64,000 bases of DNA from Escherichia coli. GTDB taxonomy: Bacteria > Pseudomonadota > Gammaproteobacteria > Enterobacterales > Enterobacteriaceae. The stretch is taken from the NCBI RefSeq assembly GCF_003991155.1, contig NZ_CP031293.1; one strand, given 5' to 3'. A program made the translations under genes and the position numbers. The notes beneath the pieces are model-generated. The model made no database searches. It was not told the origin of the DNA and was given only the letters and a program-made list of their open reading frames with translations. Every line of letters begins with the position of its first letter. Positions within the stretch are counted from its first letter, which is position 1. This document shows, one piece after another, positions 2,520 through 31,136 of this stretch.

Positions 2520-3131
<612 letters not shown>

Positions 3132-13127: not shown

Positions 13128-13147
13128 TACGCGCGCGCGTACTTGTC
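13128..13147. repeat. GC-palindrome repeat R1 (TACGCGCGCGCGTACTTGTC)
   Basis: First of four related copies (see 14520, 14754, 14807). R1 and R2 align over about 45 bp. Confidence 0.6.
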
Positions 13148-13195
13148 CCGAAATACCAGAAACCGCCAGCCAGAGGATGATTTCCCTCTGGTGGT

Positions 13196-13477
13196 CTACC
13201 TTTGCCTCTTGCCGCCATTTAACCGGAAGGCGTTACCGTTCGGTTGCGCTATCCCCATGCGGTGTTGCGTTTCGGTAACAGCTTTATGCAGGTCGCCAAA
13301 TTCCTCAACCTTCACGGGCGGGCGCTTCACGTTCTCCAGACACGTTTCACGGCGGCGCTTTATCCATTCCCGATCATCGTCCTCGGTGCATAACAGCATG
13401 ACTTCCATCCATCGTGCGGCAGCTCTCCGGTATAGCCCTTTTGACTCCAGCTCTTCAGCTTTCCTGTCCCTTATCAT
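13196..13477 (-). CDS. PerC/Pch-family transcriptional activator-like protein
   Basis: 93 aa. MIRDRKAEELESKGLYRRAAARWMEVML...RRRETCL matches the PerC-family signature (LE-KGL-RRAA-RW) as I recall it. Confidence 0.6.
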   Translation of the reverse strand: MIRDRKAEELESKGLYRRAAARWMEVMLLCTEDDDREWIKRRRETCLENVKRPPVKVEEFGDLHKAVTETQHRMGIAQPNGNAFRLNGGKRQR

Positions 13478-13506
13478 TTCTGCCTCTCAGATTATATAGA
13501 TAAGCA

Positions 13507-13634
13507 AAAAGGTGTTGGTTCAGTTGGTTCAGTTGGTTCAATTTGTAAAGATCGTTGTTTTTATTGTGTTTTTTCTGAAATGTTGAACCAACATCAACTC
13601 ATTTTGAACCAACACAGCCCAGCTCTGAACCAAC
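13507..13634. repeat. iteron-type origin-like element (ori-prime / crr-like)
   Basis: Three contiguous GTTGGTTCA (13514-13540), a 43-bp AT-rich spacer, then three inverted TGAACCAAC at 13584, 13605 and 13626 (21-bp phasing). Confidence 0.7.
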
Positions 13635-13686
13635 AACACAGCGATAGCTTTGTGATTGGTCCGTTATTTTCTGGCTGATATTTGAG

Positions 13687-13717
13687 CGTATAACAGTGTT
13701 ATACAGTGGTATACTGT
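13687..13717. promoter_or_regulatory. two adjacent palindromic operator-like sites upstream of the RHH gene
   Basis: TATAACAgTGTTATA (13687-13701) and ATACAGTggtatACTGTAT (13699-13717). They overlap a TATACT -10-like hexamer. Confidence 0.4.
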
Positions 13718-13736
13718 ATGGATATTACTCACTGAT

Positions 13737-14192
13737 ATGGTCTTTGCAATGAGCAAATCTAATCTGATCGCGTTCCGCATCCCATCTGAATTGCAGGATG
13801 AGTTTAATCGGTCTGTTCTCGCTTCTGGAGGGGATAAAACCTCCTGGCTTGTTGATGCGATTCGCATGAAGCTGGGACAGCCGGAAAAGTCTATTGATTC
13901 ACGAATGCTTGGGCTGGTGGAGCGCATGGAAAAAGCCGCTGCGTCGCTTATTGCCGGAAAGCCGAACATCCCACCAAAGCCATATAACGAAACGGCAGTT
14001 ATAAAGATCATTGCCGATACCATCCAACAGGGATTTGATAATGGGCGTGTGATAGCTGAACGGATCAATGAAGCAGGCTATCAAACAAAAGCTGGTAAAG
14101 CGTGGGATAAAGATATTTACAGCGCGTGGAAGCGTCAGGGAAGCAATGCTGAAAAGTTAAAAGCGGTGATTGATTGTAAGGTCAGCGTATAA
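13737..14192 (+). CDS. ribbon-helix-helix (Arc/Mnt/CopG-like) DNA-binding protein with an extra C-terminal domain
   Basis: N-terminus SNLIAFRIPSELQDEFNRSVLASGGDKTSWLVDAIRMKL fits the RHH strand-helix-helix pattern. The alternative start is 13749. The remaining ~100 aa are unassigned. Confidence 0.55.
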   Translation: MVFAMSKSNLIAFRIPSELQDEFNRSVLASGGDKTSWLVDAIRMKLGQPEKSIDSRMLGLVERMEKAAASLIAGKPNIPPKPYNETAVIKIIADTIQQGFDNGRVIAERINEAGYQTKAGKAWDKDIYSAWKRQGSNAEKLKAVIDCKVSV

Positions 14193-14271
14193 ACATGAGT
14201 GCCCATTGGAAAGCTGCTTGGGCCAATACCTTTATACACCAGCAGGTGGTGACGATAGGTGAGGATTAGGC

Positions 14272-14493
14272 ATGAAAGGCAGAACGCCACACATTGAACA
14301 TCAAGCCAACCACTTCTCGGATGTTCGCAATGAGATGATTGCCATTCGCGGTGATATGCACGGCTTGGAGCGTCGAATTATTGATAAGATTGATGAAAAT
14401 AGAGATAAGGCCAGTGAAAATCAAAAGTGGATCATCGGCCTGTTGATTTTATCAATTCTTATCCCGCTACTTATCGCATTGGTCACAAAATGA
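14272..14493 (+). CDS. 73-aa protein with coiled-coil N-terminus and a single C-terminal TM helix
   Basis: GAGG RBS 9 nt upstream. The C-terminus is WIIGLLILSILIPLLIALVTK. The architecture resembles XhlA/holin-like small membrane proteins (inference only). Confidence 0.5.
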   Translation: MKGRTPHIEHQANHFSDVRNEMIAIRGDMHGLERRIIDKIDENRDKASENQKWIIGLLILSILIPLLIALVTK

Positions 14494-14519
14494 ATATCCA
14501 ATGTGTATGCTGTCGATGC

Positions 14520-14537
14520 TACGCGCGCGTACTTGTC
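14520..14537. repeat. GC-palindrome repeat R2 (TACGCGCGCGTACTTGTC)
   Basis: See R1. Located 27 nt after the stop of the 73-aa gene. Confidence 0.6.
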
Positions 14538-14753
14538 GCAAAATATCAGGCAAAGGCCAGATTCAGAAATTCGTGATAACCACCAGCACAACATGAGAGG
14601 TCATGTAACGCGATTTATCACACCAGATACATGTGATTGGTGTACCCGCATAAAACATCGTCATAGCGCGTCCTGTGCGCATATACGCCGATAATCAACA
14701 CATCACCACCACTCTGTCTCATGTAGAGAACAGTTTTATGGTACTCCCCTCCA

Positions 14754-14770
14754 TCGTGCGCGTACTGGTC
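14754..14770. repeat. GC-palindrome repeat R3 (TCGTGCGCGTACTGGTC)
   Basis: Degenerate copy, same orientation as R1, R2 and R4. Confidence 0.5.
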
Positions 14771-14776
14771 GGACGT

Positions 14777-14798
14777 AGTTGCAAAATTTTTTGCAACT
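14777..14798. repeat. inverted repeat AGTTGCAA-N6-TTGCAACT between R3 and R4
   Basis: 8-bp perfect arms read directly from the sequence. Confidence 0.5.
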
Positions 14799-14806
14799 GA
14801 TACCCC

Positions 14807-14823
14807 TCGCGCGCGTACTGGTC
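14807..14823. repeat. GC-palindrome repeat R4 (TCGCGCGCGTACTGGTC)
   Basis: See R1. Confidence 0.55.
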
Positions 14824-15036
14824 ACGAAATTGGTGTTTTGCTGTGGCAGTGATATCAGAAAAATCTTCCTGTTTCACATAAAGCGGATATGCGCGTAATG
14901 TAACGGCCCCATCAACTGGGAGCGGATTTGAGCCCGAATGTGTAGGCAATGTCACTTAACGTTTGTCGCATACCTTCCAGAAAAAGCGATTCATGAATAA
15001 TAGGGGCATGAATGCCCGGCGTACCGGGCTTATTAG

Positions 15037-15735
15037 TTAATTTGGTGCTTTAGGGTCAACATTAAAAGTTATATCACCTTCTGTATTTTTCCCGGCATAG
15101 CTAGCGGCTATTCTCGCCAACCCTTTGTAATCAGCAATTCCATCAGACTGTTGCGAGACGACTGAGCTACCAACTTTCCATAACATATTAATCTGCCGAT
15201 TATTGAGATAAGCCTTGGCATCAAACGACTGGAGTATCACCCCTGCGCCGTAGAACGTGTCCGTCACAGTTGTGTTATACGCGCCAGTAATTCCATAAGT
15301 AGGCGTATAAACTGTTGTTGCCGTTCCAGTGGTATTAGCTGTACCGTAGCCACCACCATAACTATTGAACGTGGTGTTCGAGTTTCCGTACGTTGTTGCT
15401 GAGCTCACACCAGTTTGCCCGTATATTGGGATGGTTACATTACGAGTATTTGAAATGGCCCCGCTTCTCAAAAAGTTCAAGAGAATTACCTGGTCAGCCA
15501 ATTTTTCATCTTTAACTTGTGTATATCCTTGGCTTGATAAACTGGCGGCTACTACCGTAGCTATTTGAGTGTATTCAATCTGTTTGGTGTTCCAAAGTTC
15601 TTGGCTTGCGGGGATGATCAAGAACTTCTTACCGACAGATTGCCCGGAAGATAAAGCATTGACCGTTACTAACGGTTTTTGTACGCATCCAGCCAATAAT
15701 GACAGGGATAATATTAAAAGAAGATTTTTAATCAT
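15037..15735 (-). CDS. lipoprotein (moron-like)
   Basis: 232 aa. Signal peptide with lipobox MIKNLLLILSLSLLAGC. The central region is Thr/Gly/Tyr/Asn-rich. AGGTGAG RBS. It has its own 150-bp upstream spacer after the 908-aa gene. Confidence 0.75.
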   Translation of the reverse strand: MIKNLLLILSLSLLAGCVQKPLVTVNALSSGQSVGKKFLIIPASQELWNTKQIEYTQIATVVAASLSSQGYTQVKDEKLADQVILLNFLRSGAISNTRNVTIPIYGQTGVSSATTYGNSNTTFNSYGGGYGTANTTGTATTVYTPTYGITGAYNTTVTDTFYGAGVILQSFDAKAYLNNRQINMLWKVGSSVVSQQSDGIADYKGLARIAASYAGKNTEGDITFNVDPKAPN

Positions 15736-15885
15736 GATAATCTCACCTAAGAATTGCGTGGTTATAAATTATCATCACTGTAAGCGAATGTAAGCCACAG
15801 GCTCGTAATGTGATATGGAATTTTGATAGTTGGCTCAATATCAGTATGCCGTCCTTGGCTATTATGGTTTTGTTAGTTAGAGCGT

Positions 15886-18612
15886 CTATTCCCATTCGCT
15901 AACATCTTTCATGCCACTGAGGGTAGCTACAATCCCGGCCCTTGTCAGTTTCACGAATTCTTCAGCCCCAACGGCATCACGAATTGCTTTCATGGCAATT
16001 TTATTGGCCGAAAATCGTTTCTCTGCTGCGGCGATCGCTGCTGGTGATGCCCCTGCGCGCACTGCTTTTGTAGCTTCCTGAACGGCTTTCTCTATCGCAT
16101 ATCGACCACTTCTTGTCGCCCCAATCTTAGCCACAGCATTTCTTAGCGCGCCACCAGCAACCAAACCACTAATCGAACCAATTACACCACCGCCAAAGCC
16201 TCCAGCGATCGCACCTGACTGTTGAACTCCGTTCATAATCACGCCGACGATCTTTGGAAGGCCTGAATCGAGCGTTTTGAGAGCCTCAGTTGTTCTTCCC
16301 GTGCGCTCTACGTATCGCTGCGGTCTGGTACTGGCTTTAGCGAGTACACCGAACTCTTTCATCATTCTACCGAGATCTGGCGCATGACGACTGATGGCGT
16401 TTACATTCTGCTGGGTCATGAGCTTGGCAAAATACTGGATACCTGACTCTTCACCGATTCCTCCCTTCTCTCCCTGCGCCACAGCATGCTGAAGAATAGA
16501 TGCTATTGCAGGTTGGCGTTCTGCTTCCGGCAGCGCGGAGATAAGACGGTGAAAAGCTCCCGTTCCAGTGTTTGCGGATGCCTTAAGCGTATCGGCACCT
16601 TTTCTTACCATAGCGTCTGATGCGAGATCTCGACCAAAAACAGATTCGGCATTTTGTTTGGCGATAATGTAACTTTTAGAGAGATCGTTAGCTTTCTGCC
16701 ATTCTGTGAGGAAGTTTCCTTTTTCAGCCATGATGCGCATGTCATCAGTGATAGCTCTGCGCATTTCTCCGGCAATCCGGGCGGCATTGGCCTTACCTGC
16801 CCGGGTGTTTGCTTGTTCAGCATCAGCAAACTTAGCACGCCATGCCTTCATCCCGTCGAAGGTTATGCCGCCACCTTGGTTGTTGGCAGCCTGAAACTGT
16901 TTCATCTCCGGGCTGAGTGGAACATTGGCTGCTTTTTCTGCTTGGACGACAGCCATCCCATTACTCATTTTCATCCTTTCGCGTGGCATCGTGCTTCGCA
17001 GTTCTGCCCATGCCATATTCTCTGCTGTTTTCATATCACTGAGGCTCGCGATGATGCGCTCTTTAATTGCTGCGCTTTTTTCTGATGCGCTTCCAGACTC
17101 AGCACCGAAATCAGACAACTGCTTATTCAACTTTGAGGATATTTCATTGAAGGCCGTAAGGTGAGCATCCTGAACATTCCCAGGAGTTGATGCCAGAACA
17201 CCTTCTGCTTGGGCAATTCCACGACTACCTGAGCGCATTCCAGGCGTCAGGGTGTTGATATTAATACCAGTGATTTTCGCCGCCTTAGCGACATCATCTC
17301 TGACGTTTGATGCCTGCGATGCGATATGCTCTCGGCCTACGGCAGAACGCGCTGCTTTCGATACATCATTGGCGGTTTCCAGAGTATTTGCTGCCCCTAA
17401 CACATGGCCTGATTGATTTGTATTACTCCGCAATACATCTCGCATTACGTCACTGGCTGTCTGTCCGCTCTTTATTAAAGCGCGTGCTCCTAGCGATCCT
17501 GCTAGGCCAATACCTGTCTCTTTTGCTAGGTCTTCTGGGCTGATCTGCCCGTTCTTTTGGGCGTTCACCAATGTACCTGGCAGGTTTTCTGCCAACATAC
17601 TAGCCACCTTTGTGGCCGCACGTTCAGCACGTGGAGCGTTGGCAACTGAAGAAGCTGCGGTAGCTGCCTTTCCTGCACCTAATCCTGTAATAAGGTAAGG
17701 TGCTAGCTGCTCACCAGCCTGCGCGTATGGATCTGTAGGTTGGTCTACTGGGCGAAAGACAGGTGATATGGGCGTGTATGTGCCATCACCCACACCAAGC
17801 TTCTGAGCTGCCCATGCTCCGGCTGATTGCGCCGCATTGACTACCCCCACGCCTGCGTCCATTACATCAAACGGTATATTAGCAATCCCTCTGGCCATCT
17901 GCTCTGGCGCAGCTTTCAGTCCTGGCGAAAGATATTCCATCTCAGGATTAAGGTTAGACTTGGCTACTTGCTGCTGCGGTTCCCCGGCATTTTCATCGGC
18001 GAGAAACTGAGCTCTTTTCTGCTCCCATGAACTGGCTGTTGGTAGTCCTGCTTCTATGTTCTTAAATTGCTGACGTTTTGCTTCCCATGCAGAAATATCT
18101 CCCACCTGAGAGATTTCTTTATCAAGCTCTGAGTAGTCAGGCTGCTGAAGATTGCGATGTTGACTGGTTTGTGCAAACTGCAAGATTTCACTGTCATCAG
18201 GGATTATTCCGGCATCTGCAAATTTACTTACGTAATTAGCCGTTTCATCTGGCAGTGTAGATTTACCGTTTCTGACGGCATTAATACGAGCATAGCCAGA
18301 ATTATACCCAGCCAATGCCATACCTATATCACCAAATCGCTTCATTCCTTTATTGAGATGGTTTGCTGCGATATCCATTTGCTTTTCAAATGGCAGTGAG
18401 CGCGGATCTGTTCCACGATAACCAGCATCACTCATTACTGAGGGCATCAGTTGAGCAAATCCTCTAGCTCCTTTCGGTGACTCGGCACTTCCGTTACCAC
18501 TAGATTCATTGCCAACTAATGTTTCCATCGTCCCTGATGGGAAACCATATTTTTCATCGAGATGACGGGAATAGGCTTTCTGTTTTTCTGTCAGTTGTGC
18601 CATCATTGCCAT
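15886..18612 (-). CDS. 908-aa protein with N-terminal soluble lytic transglycosylase domain (ejection / internal virion protein-like)
   Basis: SLT motifs near the N-terminus: NESSGN...GARGFAQLMPSV...ALAGYNSGYARI. The remainder is Ala-rich and helical with a Gly-rich hydrophobic segment near the C-terminus. The start overlaps the upstream ORF by 10 nt. Confidence 0.75.
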   Translation of the reverse strand: MAMMAQLTEKQKAYSRHLDEKYGFPSGTMETLVGNESSGNGSAESPKGARGFAQLMPSVMSDAGYRGTDPRSLPFEKQMDIAANHLNKGMKRFGDIGMALAGYNSGYARINAVRNGKSTLPDETANYVSKFADAGIIPDDSEILQFAQTSQHRNLQQPDYSELDKEISQVGDISAWEAKRQQFKNIEAGLPTASSWEQKRAQFLADENAGEPQQQVAKSNLNPEMEYLSPGLKAAPEQMARGIANIPFDVMDAGVGVVNAAQSAGAWAAQKLGVGDGTYTPISPVFRPVDQPTDPYAQAGEQLAPYLITGLGAGKAATAASSVANAPRAERAATKVASMLAENLPGTLVNAQKNGQISPEDLAKETGIGLAGSLGARALIKSGQTASDVMRDVLRSNTNQSGHVLGAANTLETANDVSKAARSAVGREHIASQASNVRDDVAKAAKITGININTLTPGMRSGSRGIAQAEGVLASTPGNVQDAHLTAFNEISSKLNKQLSDFGAESGSASEKSAAIKERIIASLSDMKTAENMAWAELRSTMPRERMKMSNGMAVVQAEKAANVPLSPEMKQFQAANNQGGGITFDGMKAWRAKFADAEQANTRAGKANAARIAGEMRRAITDDMRIMAEKGNFLTEWQKANDLSKSYIIAKQNAESVFGRDLASDAMVRKGADTLKASANTGTGAFHRLISALPEAERQPAIASILQHAVAQGEKGGIGEESGIQYFAKLMTQQNVNAISRHAPDLGRMMKEFGVLAKASTRPQRYVERTGRTTEALKTLDSGLPKIVGVIMNGVQQSGAIAGGFGGGVIGSISGLVAGGALRNAVAKIGATRSGRYAIEKAVQEATKAVRAGASPAAIAAAEKRFSANKIAMKAIRDAVGAEEFVKLTRAGIVATLSGMKDVSEWE

Positions 18613-19922
18613 CCCTTAAGTTTTGCCTGATAGTAACTTTCCGGCAGATAGCCATGTGCGGTCACATAATCCTTAACCAGTGAAGGATCCTGCAACAGCA
18701 TTTTGGTATCAGTTTCTTCGTCCTTAGATTTGGTTACAGGAATACCGAGCCCGGCAATCTGTCGTTTCTGCATTCGAATAATTACGTCCTGCGCTTTATT
18801 CAACTCTCGCAAAAATGCCTCATTGCTGGTTGCTGACTTAATGCCATTTTGAGATTGCATAAGGGCAGCCCTTTCCCCTTCGGTTGGGTTAGAGCCAAAA
18901 GTCCCTTTGAGGCTAGGCAGAATAACCTTTAGGTTGTATTCATCAGCTTTGGCGCGTAGGCTTCGTGTGTCTTCTGCTACATCAGGAAGGAATCCAAACC
19001 CCAGCGTCAGGGGGTTATAGTTCTGCGAGCGGGTAACGGCCGAAGGATGTTTCCCTACAATTCCCGCCAGTTCATGACCCACTTCAAGCGCAGAGTTCAA
19101 GGAGTCGATGTTACCTACAACAGTATTAATTTTATCGTTCATCTTCTCCACTTTCGCCTGCTGTACCTTGCTCAGTTCAGCATTGAGCTTGTCTCTCTCG
19201 ATGTCATTTTGAGCACGTCCAAGTCGTGCTTTCAGAACCATTTCTCTCGTGCGTAGTTGGTTATCGGATAGGACTTTGAACTGCTCCATATCGAGACGTC
19301 GATTACCCTGTTCCGCATTAACCTGAGCATTATATGCGGATGTATCTGCGTTCTGCTGTGCAATGCTCTGCCCTTGCTGCTTCTCTTGAACACTAAAGTA
19401 ACTATTTGGATCAGCATGGAGGTGGATGAGGTCAGTGATTCTGTTGAATTCCTGTGGGTCATTCTGCCAAGACTGATAAACCTCTTCAGCAGGAAGACCA
19501 AATCGCTGTAATACTGGATTTGCCTGCTGAATGGCCTTCTGCATGGTCAGTGGATCTCCAGTTTGTGACGCAAGACGCAGATTCATGGCAGCGTCAGCGG
19601 TCTGTCGATTTTGCTCAGCATCAATGAATCCCATCTGTTTTTGAGAATCAGCCATAAACTGGGGATACTGGGCCATTAACTTCTGCACGCCAACACGATC
19701 ATTATTAGCTACCGCACTACCCAACCGTGCCTGATATTCTTTTAACTGCTGGGAAATTTGCGCCTGCTGATTAATCTCAGCAACGCCTCTTAGCCCCTGT
19801 AGCGCCATTAAACCTACGTTTGGCTGCTGCTGATACTGCACAGGCTGAGGAACGGAAGAACGAGGAGCATTATCATTTTGCGGTGCCATGCTAGGCAGCC
19901 CGCCAAGTTGCCATGTCGCCAT
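18603..19922 (-). CDS. 439-aa Gln-rich coiled-coil protein (ejection protein-like, P22 gp20-sized)
   Basis: Long uninterrupted ORF. Its start overlaps the upstream stop by 1 nt. Composition and position inside the cassette are the only evidence. Confidence 0.6.
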   Translation of the reverse strand: MATWQLGGLPSMAPQNDNAPRSSVPQPVQYQQQPNVGLMALQGLRGVAEINQQAQISQQLKEYQARLGSAVANNDRVGVQKLMAQYPQFMADSQKQMGFIDAEQNRQTADAAMNLRLASQTGDPLTMQKAIQQANPVLQRFGLPAEEVYQSWQNDPQEFNRITDLIHLHADPNSYFSVQEKQQGQSIAQQNADTSAYNAQVNAEQGNRRLDMEQFKVLSDNQLRTREMVLKARLGRAQNDIERDKLNAELSKVQQAKVEKMNDKINTVVGNIDSLNSALEVGHELAGIVGKHPSAVTRSQNYNPLTLGFGFLPDVAEDTRSLRAKADEYNLKVILPSLKGTFGSNPTEGERAALMQSQNGIKSATSNEAFLRELNKAQDVIIRMQKRQIAGLGIPVTKSKDEETDTKMLLQDPSLVKDYVTAHGYLPESYYQAKLKGWQ

Positions 19923-20599
19923 TAGAATCCAAGCCCCCCAACAAGACCAATAAGCCCACCACCAATAGCGCCGGCCGCAGTTCCTATTCCAGGAACAACG
20001 GAACCAAGTTGCGCACCCGCTAAAGCGCCTGATGCTGCCCCACCAATACCACGCGCAAGACTGGATGGCTGCTGCGCCTGACCTGCACGAATAGCGCCAA
20101 GCCCCTGCAAGAGTTGTCCGGTATTATTGGCGTAGTTTTGCCCTGCCGTTGCCTGCCCTGATGCCGCATTCATCCCGACATTTAGCAGGTTTCCATAATT
20201 TTGCATTTGCCCACTAAGCCAATTGTTATAAAGCATGGGCGCAATGGAAGATAACTGGTTACTGGTAGCTGTTGAGCCAAGCCCCCCGGTAGCTTCTGCT
20301 GAGACAAGGTTCTGATAACGGGCCTGATCTGCCTGTGTTTTATATAAACCAGAACCAAAGAAATCATTCGCGGCTTTATTCTGCCCTTCCAGAGTCATCA
20401 GTCCTTGCAGTTGTTGTAAAGCAGGCAATCCGACTTCTGCATACGGCTTGAGATTATTCATCACCGTATTCCACTGCTCGCGCTGCAAATCAATTGCCTG
20501 CTGCTGGGCCTTCGCCTGAGCTTTAGAGGCACCACCATCACCGCCTTTTTCGTATACGGCACGATTGAGATGTTTATGAGCTATATGGGTAATTAACAT
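19922..20599 (-). CDS. 225-aa Gly/Ala/Gln-rich protein with hydrophobic Gly-zipper C-terminus (ejection protein-like, P22 gp7-sized)
   Basis: ATGTTAA start/stop overlap with the upstream ORF. C-terminus is GSVVPGIGTAAGAIGGGLIGLVGGLGF. Confidence 0.55.
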   Translation of the reverse strand: MLITHIAHKHLNRAVYEKGGDGGASKAQAKAQQQAIDLQREQWNTVMNNLKPYAEVGLPALQQLQGLMTLEGQNKAANDFFGSGLYKTQADQARYQNLVSAEATGGLGSTATSNQLSSIAPMLYNNWLSGQMQNYGNLLNVGMNAASGQATAGQNYANNTGQLLQGLGAIRAGQAQQPSSLARGIGGAASGALAGAQLGSVVPGIGTAAGAIGGGLIGLVGGLGF

Positions 20600-21054
20600 T
20601 CGCTGAATTCCTTATATTGTTGCCGAGTTAACTGATAAAGCGTTACGCCGACGGGTTTACCACATCTGATATAAGCATCATCAAGGTGACCAACACGGGT
20701 AGCGCCAAGCAAACGGATAATTGCCCGTCCATATTTTGTGGTGTCAGGAACCATAGTGATGCTGTTAAGGAATGGTGAGTTTTCGAGAAGCCATTTGCAG
20801 AATAATCGATGCCCTTGCAGTGCATATTCACCACGGAATCCGGGGTCGTACACCGCATGGCATTCAACAACGCTATGCCAGAAGTTACGCACTTCATGAA
20901 CGCCAGCCAGCACTAATCCTTCGTAGATGCCGAGATATACCGCATCAGGCTTGATGTAGTACGTGTGCCCCGGCTCAACAATATTTTCGGTATTGCCTGG
21001 CTCGTTAAGAAAGGCCTGTAATCGCACAGGGTTATCAATAAATTTTAGTTCCAT
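20593..21054 (-). CDS. 153-aa protein, possible acetyltransferase-like fold (P22 gp14-sized)
   Basis: ORF contains DPGFRGEYALQGHRLFCKWLL, which resembles GNAT motif A. First large gene of the cassette. Assignment is tentative. Confidence 0.5.
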   Translation of the reverse strand: MELKFIDNPVRLQAFLNEPGNTENIVEPGHTYYIKPDAVYLGIYEGLVLAGVHEVRNFWHSVVECHAVYDPGFRGEYALQGHRLFCKWLLENSPFLNSITMVPDTTKYGRAIIRLLGATRVGHLDDAYIRCGKPVGVTLYQLTRQQYKEFSEC

Positions 21055-21070
21055 GCGATGCCATCCATTT

Positions 21071-21232
21071 TCACATACAGCCTGCCAGCGCCTTATCTAT
21101 TAACCCTCGTGCAATTTCATGCAGAGTTGGCGCTACTCCAATTCCTGATTTTTTACGCTGCTCTTCCTGAATTTTCTTTATCGCTTCCATTTGCTTCTCA
21201 CTTATCAATACCGGCTTTACTGAAATAGCCAT
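21071..21232 (-). CDS. 53-aa possible ribbon-helix-helix protein
   Basis: AAGGGGGG RBS before ATG 21232 (MAISVKPVLISEKQMEAIKKI...). The longer 96-aa ORF-track version would include an intrinsic terminator, so the internal start is preferred. Confidence 0.45.
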   Translation of the reverse strand: MAISVKPVLISEKQMEAIKKIQEEQRKKSGIGVAPTLHEIARGLIDKALAGCM

Positions 21233-21328
21233 AACGCCCCCCTTAGAACTGTATAAAACAACAGTTATTATAGTTTCACAAATCGCAATATTCATCATCG
21301 TAATTGCAAAATATGAAACAAATAGCAC

Positions 21329-21361
21329 AAAAAAATGCCACCGCTCAGTAGCTGGTGGCAT
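21329..21361 (-). terminator. rho-independent terminator ending the primase operon
   Basis: On the minus strand: ATGCCACC-N11-GGTGGCAT followed by TTTTTTT. Confidence 0.7.
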
Positions 21362-21681
21362 CGTTCTGTGTGTCAGGTTTTGACAGGTTTTTTATGGACT
21401 CTAAAAACTATATTTATGGTATCGCATTACTCTTCACGGCAGGTGCTTTTCAGTTCTGCCCTTGCTTCTGGCTCCATTGGTAATTTGATTCGCGATCAGC
21501 TATGCGGATGGTTTGCTGAACAGGCATAACAACTTCTCAGAGGCTGTTTTTTGAACTACGAAAATTTCGTAGTGCTCACTTTCAAAAACGTCACGCCCTT
21601 GTACACAGGATTTTACGAAAGTCTCGTAAAACACTCTCTGATGCCAGCCAGGTGTTGTGCGCATCAATTCAGTCACATTGT

Positions 21682-21799
21682 GTCGGTTCAAAATACCGTG
21701 TTGTTGGTTCAGTGTTGGTTCAATAAAAAGAATAAAATCCTTATAAAACAATACACTTTACAAATTGAACCAACTGAACCAACTGAACCAACACCTTTT
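21682..21799. repeat. iteron-type replication origin adjacent to the primase gene
   Basis: GTCGGTTCA and two GTTGGTTCA (21682, 21703, 21714), a 43-bp AT-rich spacer, then three contiguous TGAACCAAC (21766-21792). 21756-21799 is the exact reverse complement of 13507-13550. Confidence 0.75.
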
Positions 21800-21817: not shown

Positions 21818-24577
21818 TCATTCTTCAGATGAGTTATAATCTCCTGGCTGGTAATTGAGTACATAAACGTTTATTTGTCGTCCCTGAATACGTGGTGATT
21901 TTCTTTGGTATCCACGACCGCTGTTTGGTGGGGTTAGCATCCCGGCTTTTTTCAACACTTCAGCAAACTGTTTTGCGTTGAAACCACATGCGATCTCCTT
22001 TTCAAATGTGGCCGGGAATGTGTAGAAAATCATTGGGCTTTCGTCATGTTCTCCACGCTGACGGTATCCGGCTAAATCTTTGATGGGCAAATCTGCCGGG
22101 CTGTATGGAAATGGTGCAAAACGGCTAAGCCCATAGGCATTAAGAAATGCCTCCGTTTGTTCAATAATCTGCTGATGCTCTTTGTTACCTGTGCCGAACT
22201 CGCGCAACCATGCGTTATAGCTGTGCTGTATCGCATCACGGCATGTCTGAGCATCCCAGCCTGTTACAACCTCGCCTAACAACAATGCGGCCTCCAGAAT
22301 GGCAAATCGCGCGGCTACACGGTGAACCTGCTCACCATAATCGGATGGGATCAGGCTTCTCCATCTGCTTTCGCAATCACGAACGGTTTTAATAGCCTGT
22401 TGCTGGTGGTGTGCCAGCCATTTAATCCACTCACGCCCGGACGCGCCGTGGTGATGCTGGTAAGCGTCTTTCAGTGCGTCTGCGTGCTGTTTTCCGTTCT
22501 GGTAATCGTGAAAGCGTACTGCTTTACTCAACGGAATATTCAGCAGTCGCACCAGTTGCCCGGCTTTGGTTTTTCGCCCGGAAGTAGCGATAAATGTTTC
22601 TAAATCCATTTCTCCGGTGCTGATTGCCACTGTACGCCAGCGTTTTAGATCCCGGTTTCCACCATCTTTAGCGCCTTGCAGTTTCCCTACACCGTTAAAT
22701 AACGCATAGGCAGACTGTGAAACGCTGACAGGATCAGCGCCCTGACCAACTTCATCAAGCGGCATTAGTCCGTCATTGTGGGCGGCGGCCTCATTTGCCA
22801 GCCCCAGCGCGGTTCCGTACCACGTCAGCCGCAGTAAATCAGGGTTGCCGTATAAGCTGCTCGCCACGTTTGCCGTGGTGGTCTTACCTGCGCTCGACTG
22901 CTCATAGAAATGAATGCCGAACCCGTCAGCGCCCACCAGCCCAATCAATGGCGCTGCCAGTGCTGCGCCGATCCCGGTCATCATTGAATAGTTACCAAAG
23001 GCCAGACGCGCCACGTTATCACGCCAGCTTTTCGCGCTCCCTGAGACGGTATATCCGGCTGCGGCTGAGCTTCTCCCGCTGAACAGCACAGGATTTTCAG
23101 GTGTTCCGATGATTTCCCCATCAGGCATGATGTACGCTCCGCATTGCCAGCCAGTGGCATGAGCAACACGCCACAATTCACGAGAGCCACTGCGTTGTAG
23201 CCAGTCTGCCAGTATTGCTCTGAGGCTGCTTTTGGTCGTGACATTTACCCCACCAGCTTTAAGTGTGCGCCATCCTTCACGTTCACCAATATCAGCCAGT
23301 GGAATGGCAGCGGTTGTCGGCGTTTCAGAACCAAACGACAGCCAGCGAAGAATGAGATACTGGTCTTTATCGTCTCTGCCAGTACCGATAACGCTTAACG
23401 GAGAACATAACCAGCTTTCGTTATTGATGATTTCTCCACTCTGGCTGTCAGCTCTCGGAGATACCCAATAAATACCATCCTCGCGGCTTTCTATTCTTGG
23501 TTTCAGTGGGTCGGTATCCATAACCTTAAAATCGCTTCCCTCAATGGTCTGTGGCTCCTGTTTCACGCCATTACCCTGTGGTTGGTACATTGACTTATTG
23601 AACGCTTCTGTGGCGCATTTAATGCCGTGTTTTTGGTGGTAATCATTCCAGTCTGCTTTGTGATCTGTCGGGGGTAATGCCACCCATCCAGAAACAGATA
23701 AAGCTGCTTTTTCTGCTGCTATTCTCCCCGTGTTTTGTCTTCCTTCGCTGTGGTCGTTATCCGCAGCAATGATGATTTGTGCTGAAGGAAATTTATCCCG
23801 CAGTACCTGGGCGACATATAACAGGTTCCCGGCATCAATCGCCGCCACTGTCAGCGCCTCTGGACGAATTAAATGGGCAGATAATGCCGTTGCCAGACCT
23901 TCTGCGATTAAGATGCTCTGTGTTGTTTCTGGTGCGTTTATGGCGTGATATGCCCCCCGCTTTGCTGAACCTGTCAGGAGTCTTTTTTCACCATGTGAGG
24001 TAATAGTCTGTGCTGCTGTGACTGCGCCGGATTTATCCACCAGCGCCAGCAACAGAGATCCATCGGGCAACACGGGGAATGTAAAATCACCTACCCCTTT
24101 CGCAACCAGATAATCAGATTTGCCGTTTACAGCCTTTCTGCGCATGTCATCAAACTGACGGGAAAACGTATCCCGTCTTTGTTGTTCGTCCTTCTCTGCC
24201 CTTTTCAGGCGCTCCTGTTCGCGTCGCTGGCGCTCGGTTTCCAGTTGTTCCCGTTTCTGGCTGGTGGCTTCTGGTGTTTCCGTTGTCCGGTAATCAATAC
24301 CCAGAACATCAGCGGCAAGAAGCGCCGCCTCTGTTGTGTCGCAGTTATTTACGCGTTTAATTAAATCCAGCCCATCACCAGCGCCGCACTGATTACAGAT
24401 GAAGCTACCGCGCCCGTTGTCATCGAACCGGAATCGATCTTTGCCCCCACATGCAGGGCAGGGAGCATGACGGCGCGGAGAGTCAGGGACATTTATGTTC
24501 AGGCAGCCCAGCACATGAGGCCAGTTGTTTTCAGACGCACTGATAACCTGACGGATAAGATCAATGTTTCGCATCAC
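21818..24577 (-). CDS. primase-helicase (Zn-ribbon + TOPRIM + DUF927/P-loop), functional analogue of P4 alpha
   Basis: Zn ribbon CPACGGKDRFRFDD...FICNQCG; TOPRIM-like ILIAEGLATALS...IIIAADND; Walker A YEQSSAGKTT. GTG 24577 or ATG 24574 start overlapping the upstream stop. Confidence 0.85.
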   Translation of the reverse strand: MMRNIDLIRQVISASENNWPHVLGCLNINVPDSPRRHAPCPACGGKDRFRFDDNGRGSFICNQCGAGDGLDLIKRVNNCDTTEAALLAADVLGIDYRTTETPEATSQKREQLETERQRREQERLKRAEKDEQQRRDTFSRQFDDMRRKAVNGKSDYLVAKGVGDFTFPVLPDGSLLLALVDKSGAVTAAQTITSHGEKRLLTGSAKRGAYHAINAPETTQSILIAEGLATALSAHLIRPEALTVAAIDAGNLLYVAQVLRDKFPSAQIIIAADNDHSEGRQNTGRIAAEKAALSVSGWVALPPTDHKADWNDYHQKHGIKCATEAFNKSMYQPQGNGVKQEPQTIEGSDFKVMDTDPLKPRIESREDGIYWVSPRADSQSGEIINNESWLCSPLSVIGTGRDDKDQYLILRWLSFGSETPTTAAIPLADIGEREGWRTLKAGGVNVTTKSSLRAILADWLQRSGSRELWRVAHATGWQCGAYIMPDGEIIGTPENPVLFSGRSSAAAGYTVSGSAKSWRDNVARLAFGNYSMMTGIGAALAAPLIGLVGADGFGIHFYEQSSAGKTTTANVASSLYGNPDLLRLTWYGTALGLANEAAAHNDGLMPLDEVGQGADPVSVSQSAYALFNGVGKLQGAKDGGNRDLKRWRTVAISTGEMDLETFIATSGRKTKAGQLVRLLNIPLSKAVRFHDYQNGKQHADALKDAYQHHHGASGREWIKWLAHHQQQAIKTVRDCESRWRSLIPSDYGEQVHRVAARFAILEAALLLGEVVTGWDAQTCRDAIQHSYNAWLREFGTGNKEHQQIIEQTEAFLNAYGLSRFAPFPYSPADLPIKDLAGYRQRGEHDESPMIFYTFPATFEKEIACGFNAKQFAEVLKKAGMLTPPNSGRGYQRKSPRIQGRQINVYVLNYQPGDYNSSEE

Positions 24578-28618: not shown

Positions 28619-29050
28619 TTAGGCGGCGTTAAACGCGTCCGGGTAGAGTTTCAGAATGTCGGCAATTTCCTGCTGAGAAAGTCCGTTGTGATCATTTATG
28701 TTCGCAAGATGGTTAATATGAGTGATCACTTTCAGAACATCACCACGGCAGGAGAAACGGTAGCGAAGGTGTGTTCCGATACCATCAGGATTCTTTTCGT
28801 CGATACGCTCCAGAGTGATTCCAAGCTGGCGTTCTAACTCTGTTGCATAGTTACGACCAGAAGACAGACGGCAGTAGCGAAGAATGTCATTTTCTGTCCA
28901 TCCCTCTATACCAGTACGCAGCATATAGACTCTGGCACGATGCTTTTTCGGTGTGCGCTTTGGTGCTTGAAGGGATTTTGTAAGGGGCGTAACATCAGAT
29001 ACACGAATATCTGAATTAGCCGCCTGTAATGGGCGGTTTTTCTTTTCCAT
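28619..29050 (-). CDS. hypothetical 143-aa protein of the island early region
   Basis: ORF whose start overlaps the alpA stop by 1 nt. The N-terminus is basic. No family recognised. Confidence 0.5.
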   Translation of the reverse strand: MEKKNRPLQAANSDIRVSDVTPLTKSLQAPKRTPKKHRARVYMLRTGIEGWTENDILRYCRLSSGRNYATELERQLGITLERIDEKNPDGIGTHLRYRFSCRGDVLKVITHINHLANINDHNGLSQQEIADILKLYPDAFNAA

Positions 29051-29253
29051 CAGGCCACCTCGTCTCTAGATTCTAATATACACTTCTCAATCCATTCATC
29101 TATTTCAGACTCAACAAAAGCAATTGCCCGACTTCCAATTTTTACCTGTTTAGGGAACCTCCCCTGACTAATAAGACGATAAATCCATGCTTTGCTATAA
29201 CCAGTTCGCCTTTGAACTTCAGAGAGACGAATTAATGAATTGTAATTAGCCAT
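29050..29253 (-). CDS. alpA: AlpA-family transcriptional regulator / excisionase
   Basis: 67 aa. LIRLSEVQRRTGYSKAWIYRLISQGRFPKQVKIGSRAIAFVESEIDEWI is the AlpA/MerR-type HTH signature. Located next to a P4-type int. Confidence 0.8.
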   Translation of the reverse strand: MANYNSLIRLSEVQRRTGYSKAWIYRLISQGRFPKQVKIGSRAIAFVESEIDEWIEKCILESRDEVA

Positions 29254-29680: not shown

Positions 29681-30895
29681 TCATGCGTGTTTTTCAAACA
29701 CCATATGCACCACATTTCCGCCATGCTCGAGAGAATCCATATAGTCGGCATACCATTGAAGCATCTCCCGCCGTCCATCCAGATATTGCGCATGGTTGTA
29801 TGTGCCACGAATTGAGTTCTTATCAACGTGAGCGAGCTGCGTTTCTATCCACGCGGTGTTATAGCCCTGCTCATGCAAAATCGTGCTCATAGTGTGTCGG
29901 AACCCATGACCAGTTACACGTCCAGCGTAGCCAATGCGCTTAAACACTTGGTTTATGCTGGCCTCACTCATTGTTTTCCTTGGATCATTGCGCCCGGGAA
30001 ACATAAGAGGGTAATTGCCTGTTATTTCTCTAATCTTCCCAATAAGCGAAAGAGCCTGCTCAGACAATGGCACAATATGAGGCCGCCGCATTTTCATACG
30101 TGAAGCGGGTATCTCCCATATAGCCTTGTTGAAATCAATTTCATCCCATAATGCGCCACGTAGTTCGCCAGTTCGCAAGCCGGTGATAATCAGTAGACGA
30201 GCCGCCATAACAACCAATGCGCTTCCTGAGTAACTGGACAATGCCTTGAAAAAATCAGGTAATTCTTTGGTCGTAAGGAAAGGGTAATGATTAGATTCAT
30301 GGCCTTGCATCGCGCTAGTAAGGTCTGGTGCAGGGTTATACTCTGCGCGACCAGTGACTATTGCATAGCGGAAAACTTCCCCGCACCGCTGCCTCACTTT
30401 TTTGGCTTTTTCTGTCGCACCGCGCCCCTCGATGCGCCGCAGCACATTCAGAAGTTCAAGTGGTTTGATTTCGGCGATTGGTTTTTTGCCAATGTAAGGG
30501 AACACATCTTTGTTGAAGGCTTCGAGGATGTCTGAAGCATAACCAGCAGACCATTTTTTTAATTTGCTGCTGTGCCACTCAAGGGCAATATCTTTGAAGG
30601 TGTTGTTTAACTGCGTTTCCCGGGCAATCTTTTCCTCTCGTTTCGCTTCCATCGGATCGATACCACCAGCGATACCTCTTTTCGCATCTTCACGTTTTGC
30701 CCGAGCATCGGCTAGAGTAACCTCAGGATACACACCTAGTGCCAATAGCTTCTCTTTACCAGCTACACGATATTTAAGTCGCCAGTATTTACCTCCATTA
30801 GGTTTTACCAAGAGATACAAACCGCCACCATCGGCCAGCTTGTAAGCCTTCTCTTTTGGCTTGGCTGTGTCTATTTGACGGGCATTGAGTTTCAC
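29681..30895 (-). CDS. int: P4-type tyrosine integrase
   Basis: 404 aa, GTG start. N-terminal MKLNARQIDTAKPKEKAYKLADGGGLYLLVKPNGGKYWRLKYR (DUF4102-type arm-binding domain). C-terminal HGFRHT...AHV...YNHAQY catalytic boxes. Adjacent to the tRNA. Confidence 0.9.
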   Translation of the reverse strand: MKLNARQIDTAKPKEKAYKLADGGGLYLLVKPNGGKYWRLKYRVAGKEKLLALGVYPEVTLADARAKREDAKRGIAGGIDPMEAKREEKIARETQLNNTFKDIALEWHSSKLKKWSAGYASDILEAFNKDVFPYIGKKPIAEIKPLELLNVLRRIEGRGATEKAKKVRQRCGEVFRYAIVTGRAEYNPAPDLTSAMQGHESNHYPFLTTKELPDFFKALSSYSGSALVVMAARLLIITGLRTGELRGALWDEIDFNKAIWEIPASRMKMRRPHIVPLSEQALSLIGKIREITGNYPLMFPGRNDPRKTMSEASINQVFKRIGYAGRVTGHGFRHTMSTILHEQGYNTAWIETQLAHVDKNSIRGTYNHAQYLDGRREMLQWYADYMDSLEHGGNVVHMVFEKHA

Positions 30896-31058: not shown

Positions 31059-31077
31059 AATGGTGCCGATAATAGGA
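31059..31077. repeat. attL core within the thrW 3' end
   Basis: AATGGTGCCGATAATAGGA is repeated at 11479-11497. Confidence 0.75.
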
Positions 31078-31136
31078 GTCGAACCTACGACCTTCGCATT
31101 ACGAATGCGCTGCTCTACCAACTGAGCTATATCGGC
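31061..31136 (-). tRNA. thrW: tRNA-Thr (CGU)
   Basis: The reverse complement reads GCCGATATAGCTCAGTTGGTAGAGCAGCGCATTCGTAATGCGAAGGTCGTAGGTTCGACTCCTATTATCGGCACCA. Cloverleaf with CGT anticodon. Confidence 0.95.

Follow-up and report, generated by a model that had tools for sequence, protein, structure and literature searches.

Mirror-image iteron units flank a phage-derived cargo segment in an EcCIMP1-like satellite of Escherichia coli

A 64,000-nt stretch of Escherichia coli chromosome (RefSeq assembly GCF_003991155.1, contig NZ_CP031293.1), hereafter called the window, contains an island in which two clusters of short repeats (iterons) stand 8.2 kb apart in inverted orientation and share a perfect inverted repeat of 44 bp. 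Why should one element carry two such clusters, and does the inverted repeat mark an invertible segment, the ends of a separate element or a replication origin in two parts? The island measures approximately 20 kb, lies between yagU-side genes and tRNA-Thr(cgt)/proA and is a Gram-negative phage-inducible chromosomal island (PICI), that is, a phage satellite, integrated at tRNA-Thr; 12.5 kb of the window are identical to several complete genomes. It resembles EcCIMP1, the PICI of E. coli MP1 that is mobilized by the P22-like phage Kapi1 (Pick et al. 2025, PMC11773190). Our analysis indicates that the primase-proximal cluster (U1) and the distal cluster (U2) are probably the two units of a mirror-symmetric, two-part PICI origin, split by phage-derived cargo.

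Architecture of the two iteron units

The 9-mer GTTGGTTCA occurs 12 times in the window, against an expected number of 0.53, and none of 100 shuffled sequences reached 12. Eleven of the copies fall in the two clusters, and U1 includes a further copy with one mismatch (GTCGGTTCA, at 21682). U1 (21682-21799, minus strand) starts 18 nt past the stop codon (21818-21820, minus strand) of the gene for a primase-helicase, Pri-Rep. Read on the minus strand, it consists of three contiguous iterons (21766-21792; starts at 21766, 21775 and 21784), a 43-nt spacer of 84% A+T (21723-21765) and three spaced iterons of opposite orientation at 21714, 21703 and 21682 (spacing 11/21 nt). U2 (13507-13634, plus strand) is the mirror image of U1: contiguous iterons at 13514, 13523 and 13532 (13514-13540) are followed by a 43-nt spacer of 77% A+T (13541-13583) and by opposite-strand iterons at 13584, 13605 and 13626, in exact 21-nt phasing. 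Each unit displays the strand pattern +++---, with iterons facing opposite ways across the spacer; the spacer sequences and the iteron spacing differ between the two. An earlier note on this DNA had described both clusters as three plus three iterons around a 43-bp spacer, and all its coordinates proved correct. Family-wide conservation suggests that the recognized unit is longer than 9 nt and approximates TTTTGAACCAACA. The composition profile of the window has no informative skew change at U1 or U2. The one remaining copy of GTTGGTTCA, at 3119-3127, lies in the ecp fimbrial region, far from the island, and is consistent with the chance expectation given above.

The contiguous iterons form the core of the perfect inverted repeat. 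Its left arm (13507-13550) comprises AAAAGGT, the three iterons and ATTTGTAAAG, and its right arm (21756-21799) is the exact reverse complement, as the earlier note had stated. Identity ends one base past either end, the flanks outside the repeat differing from the first base; at 93% complementarity the arms lengthen to 55 nt (13507-13561 and 21745-21799). In 64 kb of random sequence approximately 7e-18 perfect inverted pairs of 44 nt are expected.

The origins of Staphylococcus aureus pathogenicity islands (SaPIs) and of Gram-negative PICIs are found immediately 3' of rep, their function having been shown for SaPIs and EcCICFT073 (PMC6092414), and consist of iteron sets in opposite orientation around an AT-rich region (PMC9371898; PMC6092414). 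U1 agrees with this description in both position and form, lying directly 3' of pri-rep with two opposed iteron sets flanking an AT-rich region; U2 agrees in form and is placed 8.2 kb away. The likeness extends to the initiator, a self-loading helicase whose DUF927 part matches PDB entry 8tch ("Pathogenicity island protein", E 1.8e-11), and to the island context, which reads int-alpA-...-pri-ori-late/accessory genes. Both clusters, therefore, have the PICI/SaPI-type architecture, with U1 at the expected site and a shared iteron, in line with the iteron-origin reading put forward in the earlier note. The difference is one of number: published accounts of PICI origins describe a single unit, with one pair of iteron sets (PMC6092414; PMC9371898), whereas two such units are present here, mirror-oriented, 8.2 kb apart and with cargo between them. 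The tested origin of EcCICFT073 (locus L148, 11996-12285, E. coli CFT073) contains at least four GGTAGAYA iteron sets of alternating orientation in approximately 230 bp. Multi-unit origins may be common and under-described.

We propose that, in the ancestral and widespread form of the island, U1 and U2 would be adjacent, within approximately 300 bp, just 3' of pri-rep, and that in the present lineage a segment of some 8 kb, made up of accessory and late genes (those of a P22-like ejection cassette, of a lipoprotein and of a ribbon-helix-helix (RHH)/transmembrane (TM) protein pair), would have come between them. Upon induction by a helper phage the island would be excised and Pri-Rep would bind the ~10-nt iterons TGAACCAACA through its C-terminal domain, assemble on both sides of the 43-nt AT-rich spacer, melt the spacer, load itself and prime synthesis. 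U1 would be the canonical origin; U2, a site of the same kind for the same protein, would serve as a second origin or an auxiliary Rep-binding site. That Rep binds, that either unit fires as an origin and that evolution ran from compact to split are inferences drawn from analogy with characterized islands and from the comparisons below. U2 could contribute in one of several ways: by firing as an origin of its own, by enhancing or pairing with U1, or by acting as a Rep-controlled site upstream of perC, the first gene on its outer side.

Compact and split arrangements among relatives

Loci encoding relatives of the primase were collected at one genome per species (80 loci), and repeats were mapped after the stop codon. 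Those with a primase 44-99% identical to that of the window, 42 in number, are referred to as related loci. A U1-type unit directly follows the primase stop in 40 of them. Two units stand side by side, spanning 250-330 nt, in approximately 27 of the 42; the units are split by 5.9-9.0 kb in five, and six have only U1 within 10 kb. Two more loci have a flank too short to judge and another two have no clear repeats. As to whether related islands normally carry one cluster or two, a point raised in the earlier note, two adjacent clusters are thus the most frequent arrangement, though not the only one. The same count speaks against the possibility, also considered there, that the second cluster is the end of an unrelated element, since U2 adjoins U1 in most relatives.

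In the compact form, which is found with primases 44-81% identical to the window's and with seven or more different iteron sequences, the outer positions are taken by the contiguous iterons, and U2 lies within approximately 300 nt of the primase stop. Iteron types vary by lineage (GTTGGTTCA, GTTGTCTCA, GTTGTACCA, AGTGTGTCA, TTGGGATAA and others), and U1 and U2 change together. Where the primase is less than 62% identical to the window's, all 11 two-unit loci are compact. The compact form is also present in approximately 26 IMG/VR loci and in 39 E. coli genomes. One compact E. coli island (L084), at the yicC/dinD site, has the order int-alpA-ant-ash-primase-U1U2-SSB-PerC-hyp-pRiA4b ORF3, SSB standing for single-stranded DNA-binding protein and hyp for a hypothetical protein; this is the window's island minus its cargo.

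Alignment to compact islands (L084, L030, L009) delimits the cargo of the window to approximately 8.0 kb (13651-21641, edges approximate), homology to the compact forms resuming some 15 nt before the first spaced iteron of U2. The opposite edge is marked by the motif CCTGGCTGGCA (21642-21652, minus strand). In compact relatives of many genera this motif lies within the short interval between U1 and U2 (it was identified in L005, L007, L009, L022, L030, L034 and L039); in the window it is kept beside U1 and constitutes the U1-side edge of the inserted segment. Split units occur in E. coli (the window, LF4-1, EC476 and NGF1), Leclercia, Cedecea, Lonsdalea, Chimaeribacter and Pantoea; IMG/VR contigs have them as well, at distances of 7.4-10.4 kb. 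Overall, distances range from 5.9 to 10.4 kb, and the contiguous iterons are invariably outermost.

These data bear on the possibility that U2 is a relic, either the origin of a decayed second island once integrated in tandem or a duplicate decaying without function. The thrW region does gather islands, an adjacent unclassified one having been described in MP1 (PMC11773190), and U1 and U2 differ in their spacers and iteron spacing. Yet U2 stands beside U1 in most relatives and so belongs to the ordinary make-up of a single island; its iterons have remained perfect despite divergence of the intervening bases; no remnant of a primase, integrase or att site lies beside it; and tandem integration would yield direct, not inverted, repeats. 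We regard a relic as very improbable.

Some loci deserve separate mention. Four IMG/VR loci have six or seven contiguous iterons (at least 54 bp) instead of three: L087 (2-55), L133 (9843-9896), L105 (3930-3983) and L126 (3338-3391). In Leclercia adecarboxylata NCTC13032 (L037, 10001-12746) the primase gene is in four reading-frame pieces, and the iterons of both units, 8.4 kb apart, are perfect; the gene is either a recent pseudogene or affected by assembly errors. Two loci labelled Chryseobacterium sp. 18061 (L006 and L047) have primases of the Enterobacteriaceae type (identity to that of the window 78% and 68%, respectively); L006 additionally has the same iterons and island genes. This assembly is probably contaminated or mislabelled.

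The inverted repeat, the initiator and the role of the second unit

To find which bases of the units are constrained, 47 isolated units were collected, 24 of the 11/21 class (U1-like) and 23 of the 21/21 class (U2-like). Among the unique sequences of the two classes (21 and 16, respectively), conservation is 90% or higher in the iteron columns, with free variation in the columns that separate them. The conserved core, AAAagGt followed by three iterons and ATTTGTAAAG, coincides with the 44-bp perfect repeat. Likewise, the U2 units of the window and of strain NGF1 share all iterons and the 21-nt phasing, and most positions between the iterons differ. The repeat is therefore perfect because the binding array is under constraint. 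In NGF1 the identical stretch measures 48 bp and includes matching spacer bases, possibly through occasional gene conversion between U1 and U2. As far as alignments can tell, the 44-bp identity is the mark of selection on a predicted binding array and not a recombination device.

The earlier note had suggested that the identity could support RecA-mediated inversion of the entire 8.2-kb segment. Under this hypothesis the repeats would mediate RecA-dependent or site-specific inversion of the cargo and switch the genes that follow the primase operon. A perfect inverted repeat of 44 bp is indeed long enough for occasional homologous recombination, and the 48-bp identity in NGF1, with its matching spacer bases, perhaps reflects gene conversion between the units. 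However, when a synthetic inverted junction (the right-hand one only, although inversion alters both) was compared with 5,426 complete E. coli genomes, none covered it, the best coverage being 62%; 549 genomes hold parts of the junction in their assemblies, typically at two separate places, and none has them joined. Orientation is constant as well: in all genome and IMG/VR loci examined, homologues of the first cargo gene (a 96-aa open reading frame, ORF) and of the ejection genes are co-oriented with the primase, and homologues of a 151-aa ORF next to U2 are opposed to it. No recombinase or invertase domain was found in the nine ORFs between the repeats, and conserved binding sites explain the repeat. 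An invertible segment is thus extremely unlikely, although assemblies would not reveal inversion that is rare within a population. A transposon bounded by terminal inverted repeats was considered separately and rejected: there is no transposase, the flanks of the repeat differ from the first base and the repeats are the island's iteron arrays.

Could U2 be mainly a regulatory or copy-control site? In such a scheme Rep would occupy the contiguous iterons, which lie beside a TATAAT sequence and precede the perC start codon by 30 nt, and would thereby control outward transcription or be titrated; U2 would not fire. In every form of the island the contiguous iterons immediately precede the next operon (that of PerC or SSB), a conserved TTATaTATA-like element follows them, and many compact relatives have a G+C-rich U2 spacer, ill-suited to melting. 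In the window, however, the U2 spacer is 77% A+T and of the same 43-nt length as that of U1. Moreover, no site around U1 and U2 passed a scan for sigma-70 promoters under a strict rule; the TATAAT near 13488-13493 was seen by eye only and is the sole basis for the idea that iterons and promoter overlap. A mainly regulatory U2 seems to us possible, if rather unlikely.

The earlier note had also likened the locus to the ori/crr arrangement of phage P4. In the P4 record crr consists of two direct 120-bp repeats with five type-1 repeats each, immediately behind the alpha gene; it is annotated as required in cis, and ori, with the same type-1 repeats, lies 4.5 kb off on the far side of the alpha operon. 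The analogy stands in so far as both elements have a multi-domain primase-helicase with a homologous Zn-ribbon/TOPRIM module (the first 340 residues of Pri-Rep are 33% identical to P4 alpha, E 2e-41), an iteron cluster that directly follows the gene, and another cluster of the same iteron kilobases away. It fails in the architecture of the sites, their layout and the helicase family: the P4 sites are unlike each other, whereas those of the window are mirror copies of one architecture; they bracket the alpha operon, whereas both units of the window lie downstream of the primase and bracket cargo; and P4 alpha has D5_N/DUF5906/Pox_D5 where the window's primase has DUF927. The resemblance is therefore real, but only loosely so. 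In iteron plasmids, too, the initiator binds a second locus (P1 incA, the R6K origins, F incB/incC), and pairing or titration controls replication. The loci of the window differ from these in that both have a full origin architecture, are mirror images and are adjacent in most relatives.

Were the P4 model to apply in full, U1 and U2 would be functionally different partners, both required in cis, and Rep would loop out the 8 kb between them. The retention and conservation of both units after their separation would suit such obligate cooperation, as would the homology of the N-terminal primase module to P4 alpha and the precedent of a cis-required crr behind alpha with an ori bearing the same type-1 repeats at 4.5 kb. 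On the other hand, U1 alone has the full architecture of the tested PICI origin, and the six relatives without a second unit within 10 kb argue against a general requirement. To this must be added the direct-repeat structure of crr, the position of the P4 sites around the alpha operon instead of cargo, and helicase and C-terminal domains that belong to other families. We judge obligate cooperation improbable. About as improbable is a split that is functional in itself, with Rep either pairing half-origins across 8 kb or firing both, so that the helper-derived ejection cassette would be preferentially amplified or switched on upon induction.

In an alignment of 32 primases, the sole columns that separate 15 proteins of the GTTGGTTCA class from eight of the GTTGTCTCA class are 824, 892, 893, 894 and 911 (of 919). 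The residues read GYQRKS-PRI in one class and GYQGRV-RE or WQ(N/G)RT-PRI in the other, with further variants in primases of other iteron classes. Similarly, the primase of a Morganella locus (L030) with the same iteron as the window is 47-63% identical to Pri-Rep in the first three segments and 69% identical in the last. Iteron sequence and primase C-terminus thus vary in concert across relatives, in keeping with binding of the iterons by the primase-helicase itself. These patterns point to the C-terminal domain as the putative iteron reader and make residues 892-894 (RKS in GYQRKSPRI; encoded within 21821-22100) a predicted specificity determinant. Searched against the PDB by sequence, the last 130 residues gave no meaningful match.

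Several points weigh against a two-part origin recognized by the C-terminal domain. To begin with, U2 may be dispensable and its role not fixed, given the six related loci in which U1 is alone; a sensitive search of these loci for a second unit found none within the 10-kb flanks, and U2 is thus probably not universally required. Secondly, the U2 spacer is G+C-rich in many compact relatives, which suggests that the oldest role of U2 may be binding rather than melting. Thirdly, the U1-side junction varies among the split lineages: E. coli and Cedecea keep the central motif, Leclercia has SSB at the junction, and Lonsdalea, Chimaeribacter and Pantoea have PerC there. A single clean insertion is therefore too simple an account, and the split reflects either several events or one event followed by exchange of modules. 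Furthermore, when residues 740-919 were modelled with AlphaFold2 using 12 close homologues, the mean predicted local distance difference test score (pLDDT) was 45, too poor to assign a fold; at this confidence, the helix-helix-hairpin pattern of the model is only suggestive. Finally, the paper describing EcCIMP1 makes no mention of an origin or of repeats (PMC11773190). Taking these points into account, we still consider the two-part origin, split by cargo, to be the probable explanation.

The island, its cargo and their significance

The island has the layout of a PICI: int, alpA and pri are all on the minus strand, the origin lies downstream of pri and is followed by accessory and late genes, and the total size is well below that of a phage. 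Pfam searches confirm int, AlpA, AntA, Ash, the primase and PerC. The gene for a tyrosine integrase (29681-30895, minus strand) stands beside tRNA-Thr(cgt) (31061-31136). It is followed on the same strand by genes for an AlpA-family regulator (29050-29253), an AntA antirepressor, an Ash-family protein, small ORFs and the 919-aa Pri-Rep (21818-24577), in which a domain search recognized Zn_Ribbon_Prim, Toprim_3 and DUF927 ahead of the C-terminal domain. When the interval from 9 to 31 kb was searched for a second copy of the tRNA region, only 13 nt were returned, beside the tRNA itself, and the left end of the island was not located in this way.

Domain and sequence analysis confirmed the content that the earlier note had given for the enclosed segment: an ejection cassette, a lipoprotein and an RHH/TM pair. 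From the U1 side, the minus strand carries the 96-aa ORF (21071-21361), a gene for a DUF2824 protein (20593-21054; Pfam and PHROG matches, phrog_651, head morphogenesis, resembling P22-like phage genes) and, by domain matches, genes for a P22 gp7-like ejection protein (19922-20599), a P22 gp20-like ejection protein (Inj_translocase; 18603-19922) and a 908-aa protein that joins an N-terminal SLT lytic transglycosylase to a gp16-like DNA-transfer part (phrog_770; 15886-18612). These are followed, on the same strand, by the gene for a 232-aa lipoprotein having a signal peptide with a LAGC lipobox (15037-15735). The two genes nearest U2 are on the plus strand: one encodes a 73-aa protein with a C-terminal TM segment, anti-oriented to the primase (14272-14493), and the other the 151-aa RHH-like protein (13737-14192), which is transcribed away from U2 and adjoins it in five genera. 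The first gene outside U2 encodes a PerC-family regulator (13196-13477, minus strand), its start codon 30 nt from the contiguous iterons; beyond it lie a 61-aa ORF and the gene for a pRiA4b ORF3 protein.

The satellite holds its own P22-like ejection set (the DUF2824, gp7-, gp20- and gp16-like proteins) in the interval 15886-21361. A stretch of 0.4 kb of this cassette is 90% identical to Kapi1 DNA. No phage-like structural genes were reported for EcCIMP1, in which these coding sequences are termed DNA-transfer or hypothetical proteins (PMC11773190). The gene for the SLT-gp16 fusion is intact in the window and in NGF1 and annotated as frameshifted in LF4-1. The lipoprotein at the end of the cassette (MIKNLLLILSLSLLAGC...) has no Pfam or PHROG match; it might, speculatively, be a candidate determinant of the superinfection immunity that has been reported for EcCIMP1.

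Kinship with EcCIMP1, whose induction and transfer by the helper Kapi1 have been reported (PMC11773190), is evident from the integration region, the gene order and near-identical genes. A match to the MP1 chromosome (H42) falls within the published EcCIMP1 coordinates (PMC11773190). The NGF1/MP1-type island (L003) has a primase 99% identical to the window's, PerC and 908-aa proteins 100% identical, and both iteron units. It differs in the spacing of U1, which is 21/21 instead of 11/21, and in having another gene next to U2 where the window has the RHH/TM pair. In EcCIMP1, a second, oppositely oriented alpA lies at that far end of the island (PMC11773190).

The region around U2 contains other repeats. 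A palindromic, operator-like sequence, ATACAGTGGTATACTGTAT, is found within TATAACAGTGTTATACAGTGGTATACTGTATGG in the interval that separates U2 from the 151-aa RHH-like gene (13688-13722); the corresponding position in Cedecea, Lonsdalea, Chimaeribacter and Pantoea is occupied by a different direct repeat, GTAAGACAnTGTAAGACA. A 28-nt repeat (CGCGCGCGTACTTGTC...) is present three times, one copy lying just downstream of perC (13132-13159) and two in the cargo near the point where gene orientations converge (14522-14549 and 14808-14835). A perC-like duplication inside the cargo was considered and rejected, the similarity being merely a short repeat of 23-35 nt.

PICI satellites are common in enterobacteria, where they shape phage resistance and the regulation of virulence genes, and EcCIMP1-like islands are widespread in E. 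coli. The present results go beyond the published single-pair origin in three respects. Islands with primases of this large family normally have two mirror-image units; 6-10 kb of captured phage genes can lie between the two, with the predicted binding sites kept; and a stretch of three primase residues, 892-894, tracks iteron specificity. They also remove a false lead, in that the perfect inverted repeat is a conserved, predicted protein-binding array and not evidence of a genetic switch. Should the split prove functional, a design in which cargo is bracketed by origins would have been retained in several genera. The locus thus offers handles for studying how satellite initiators are loaded, why a second unit is present and how late-gene cassettes are captured.

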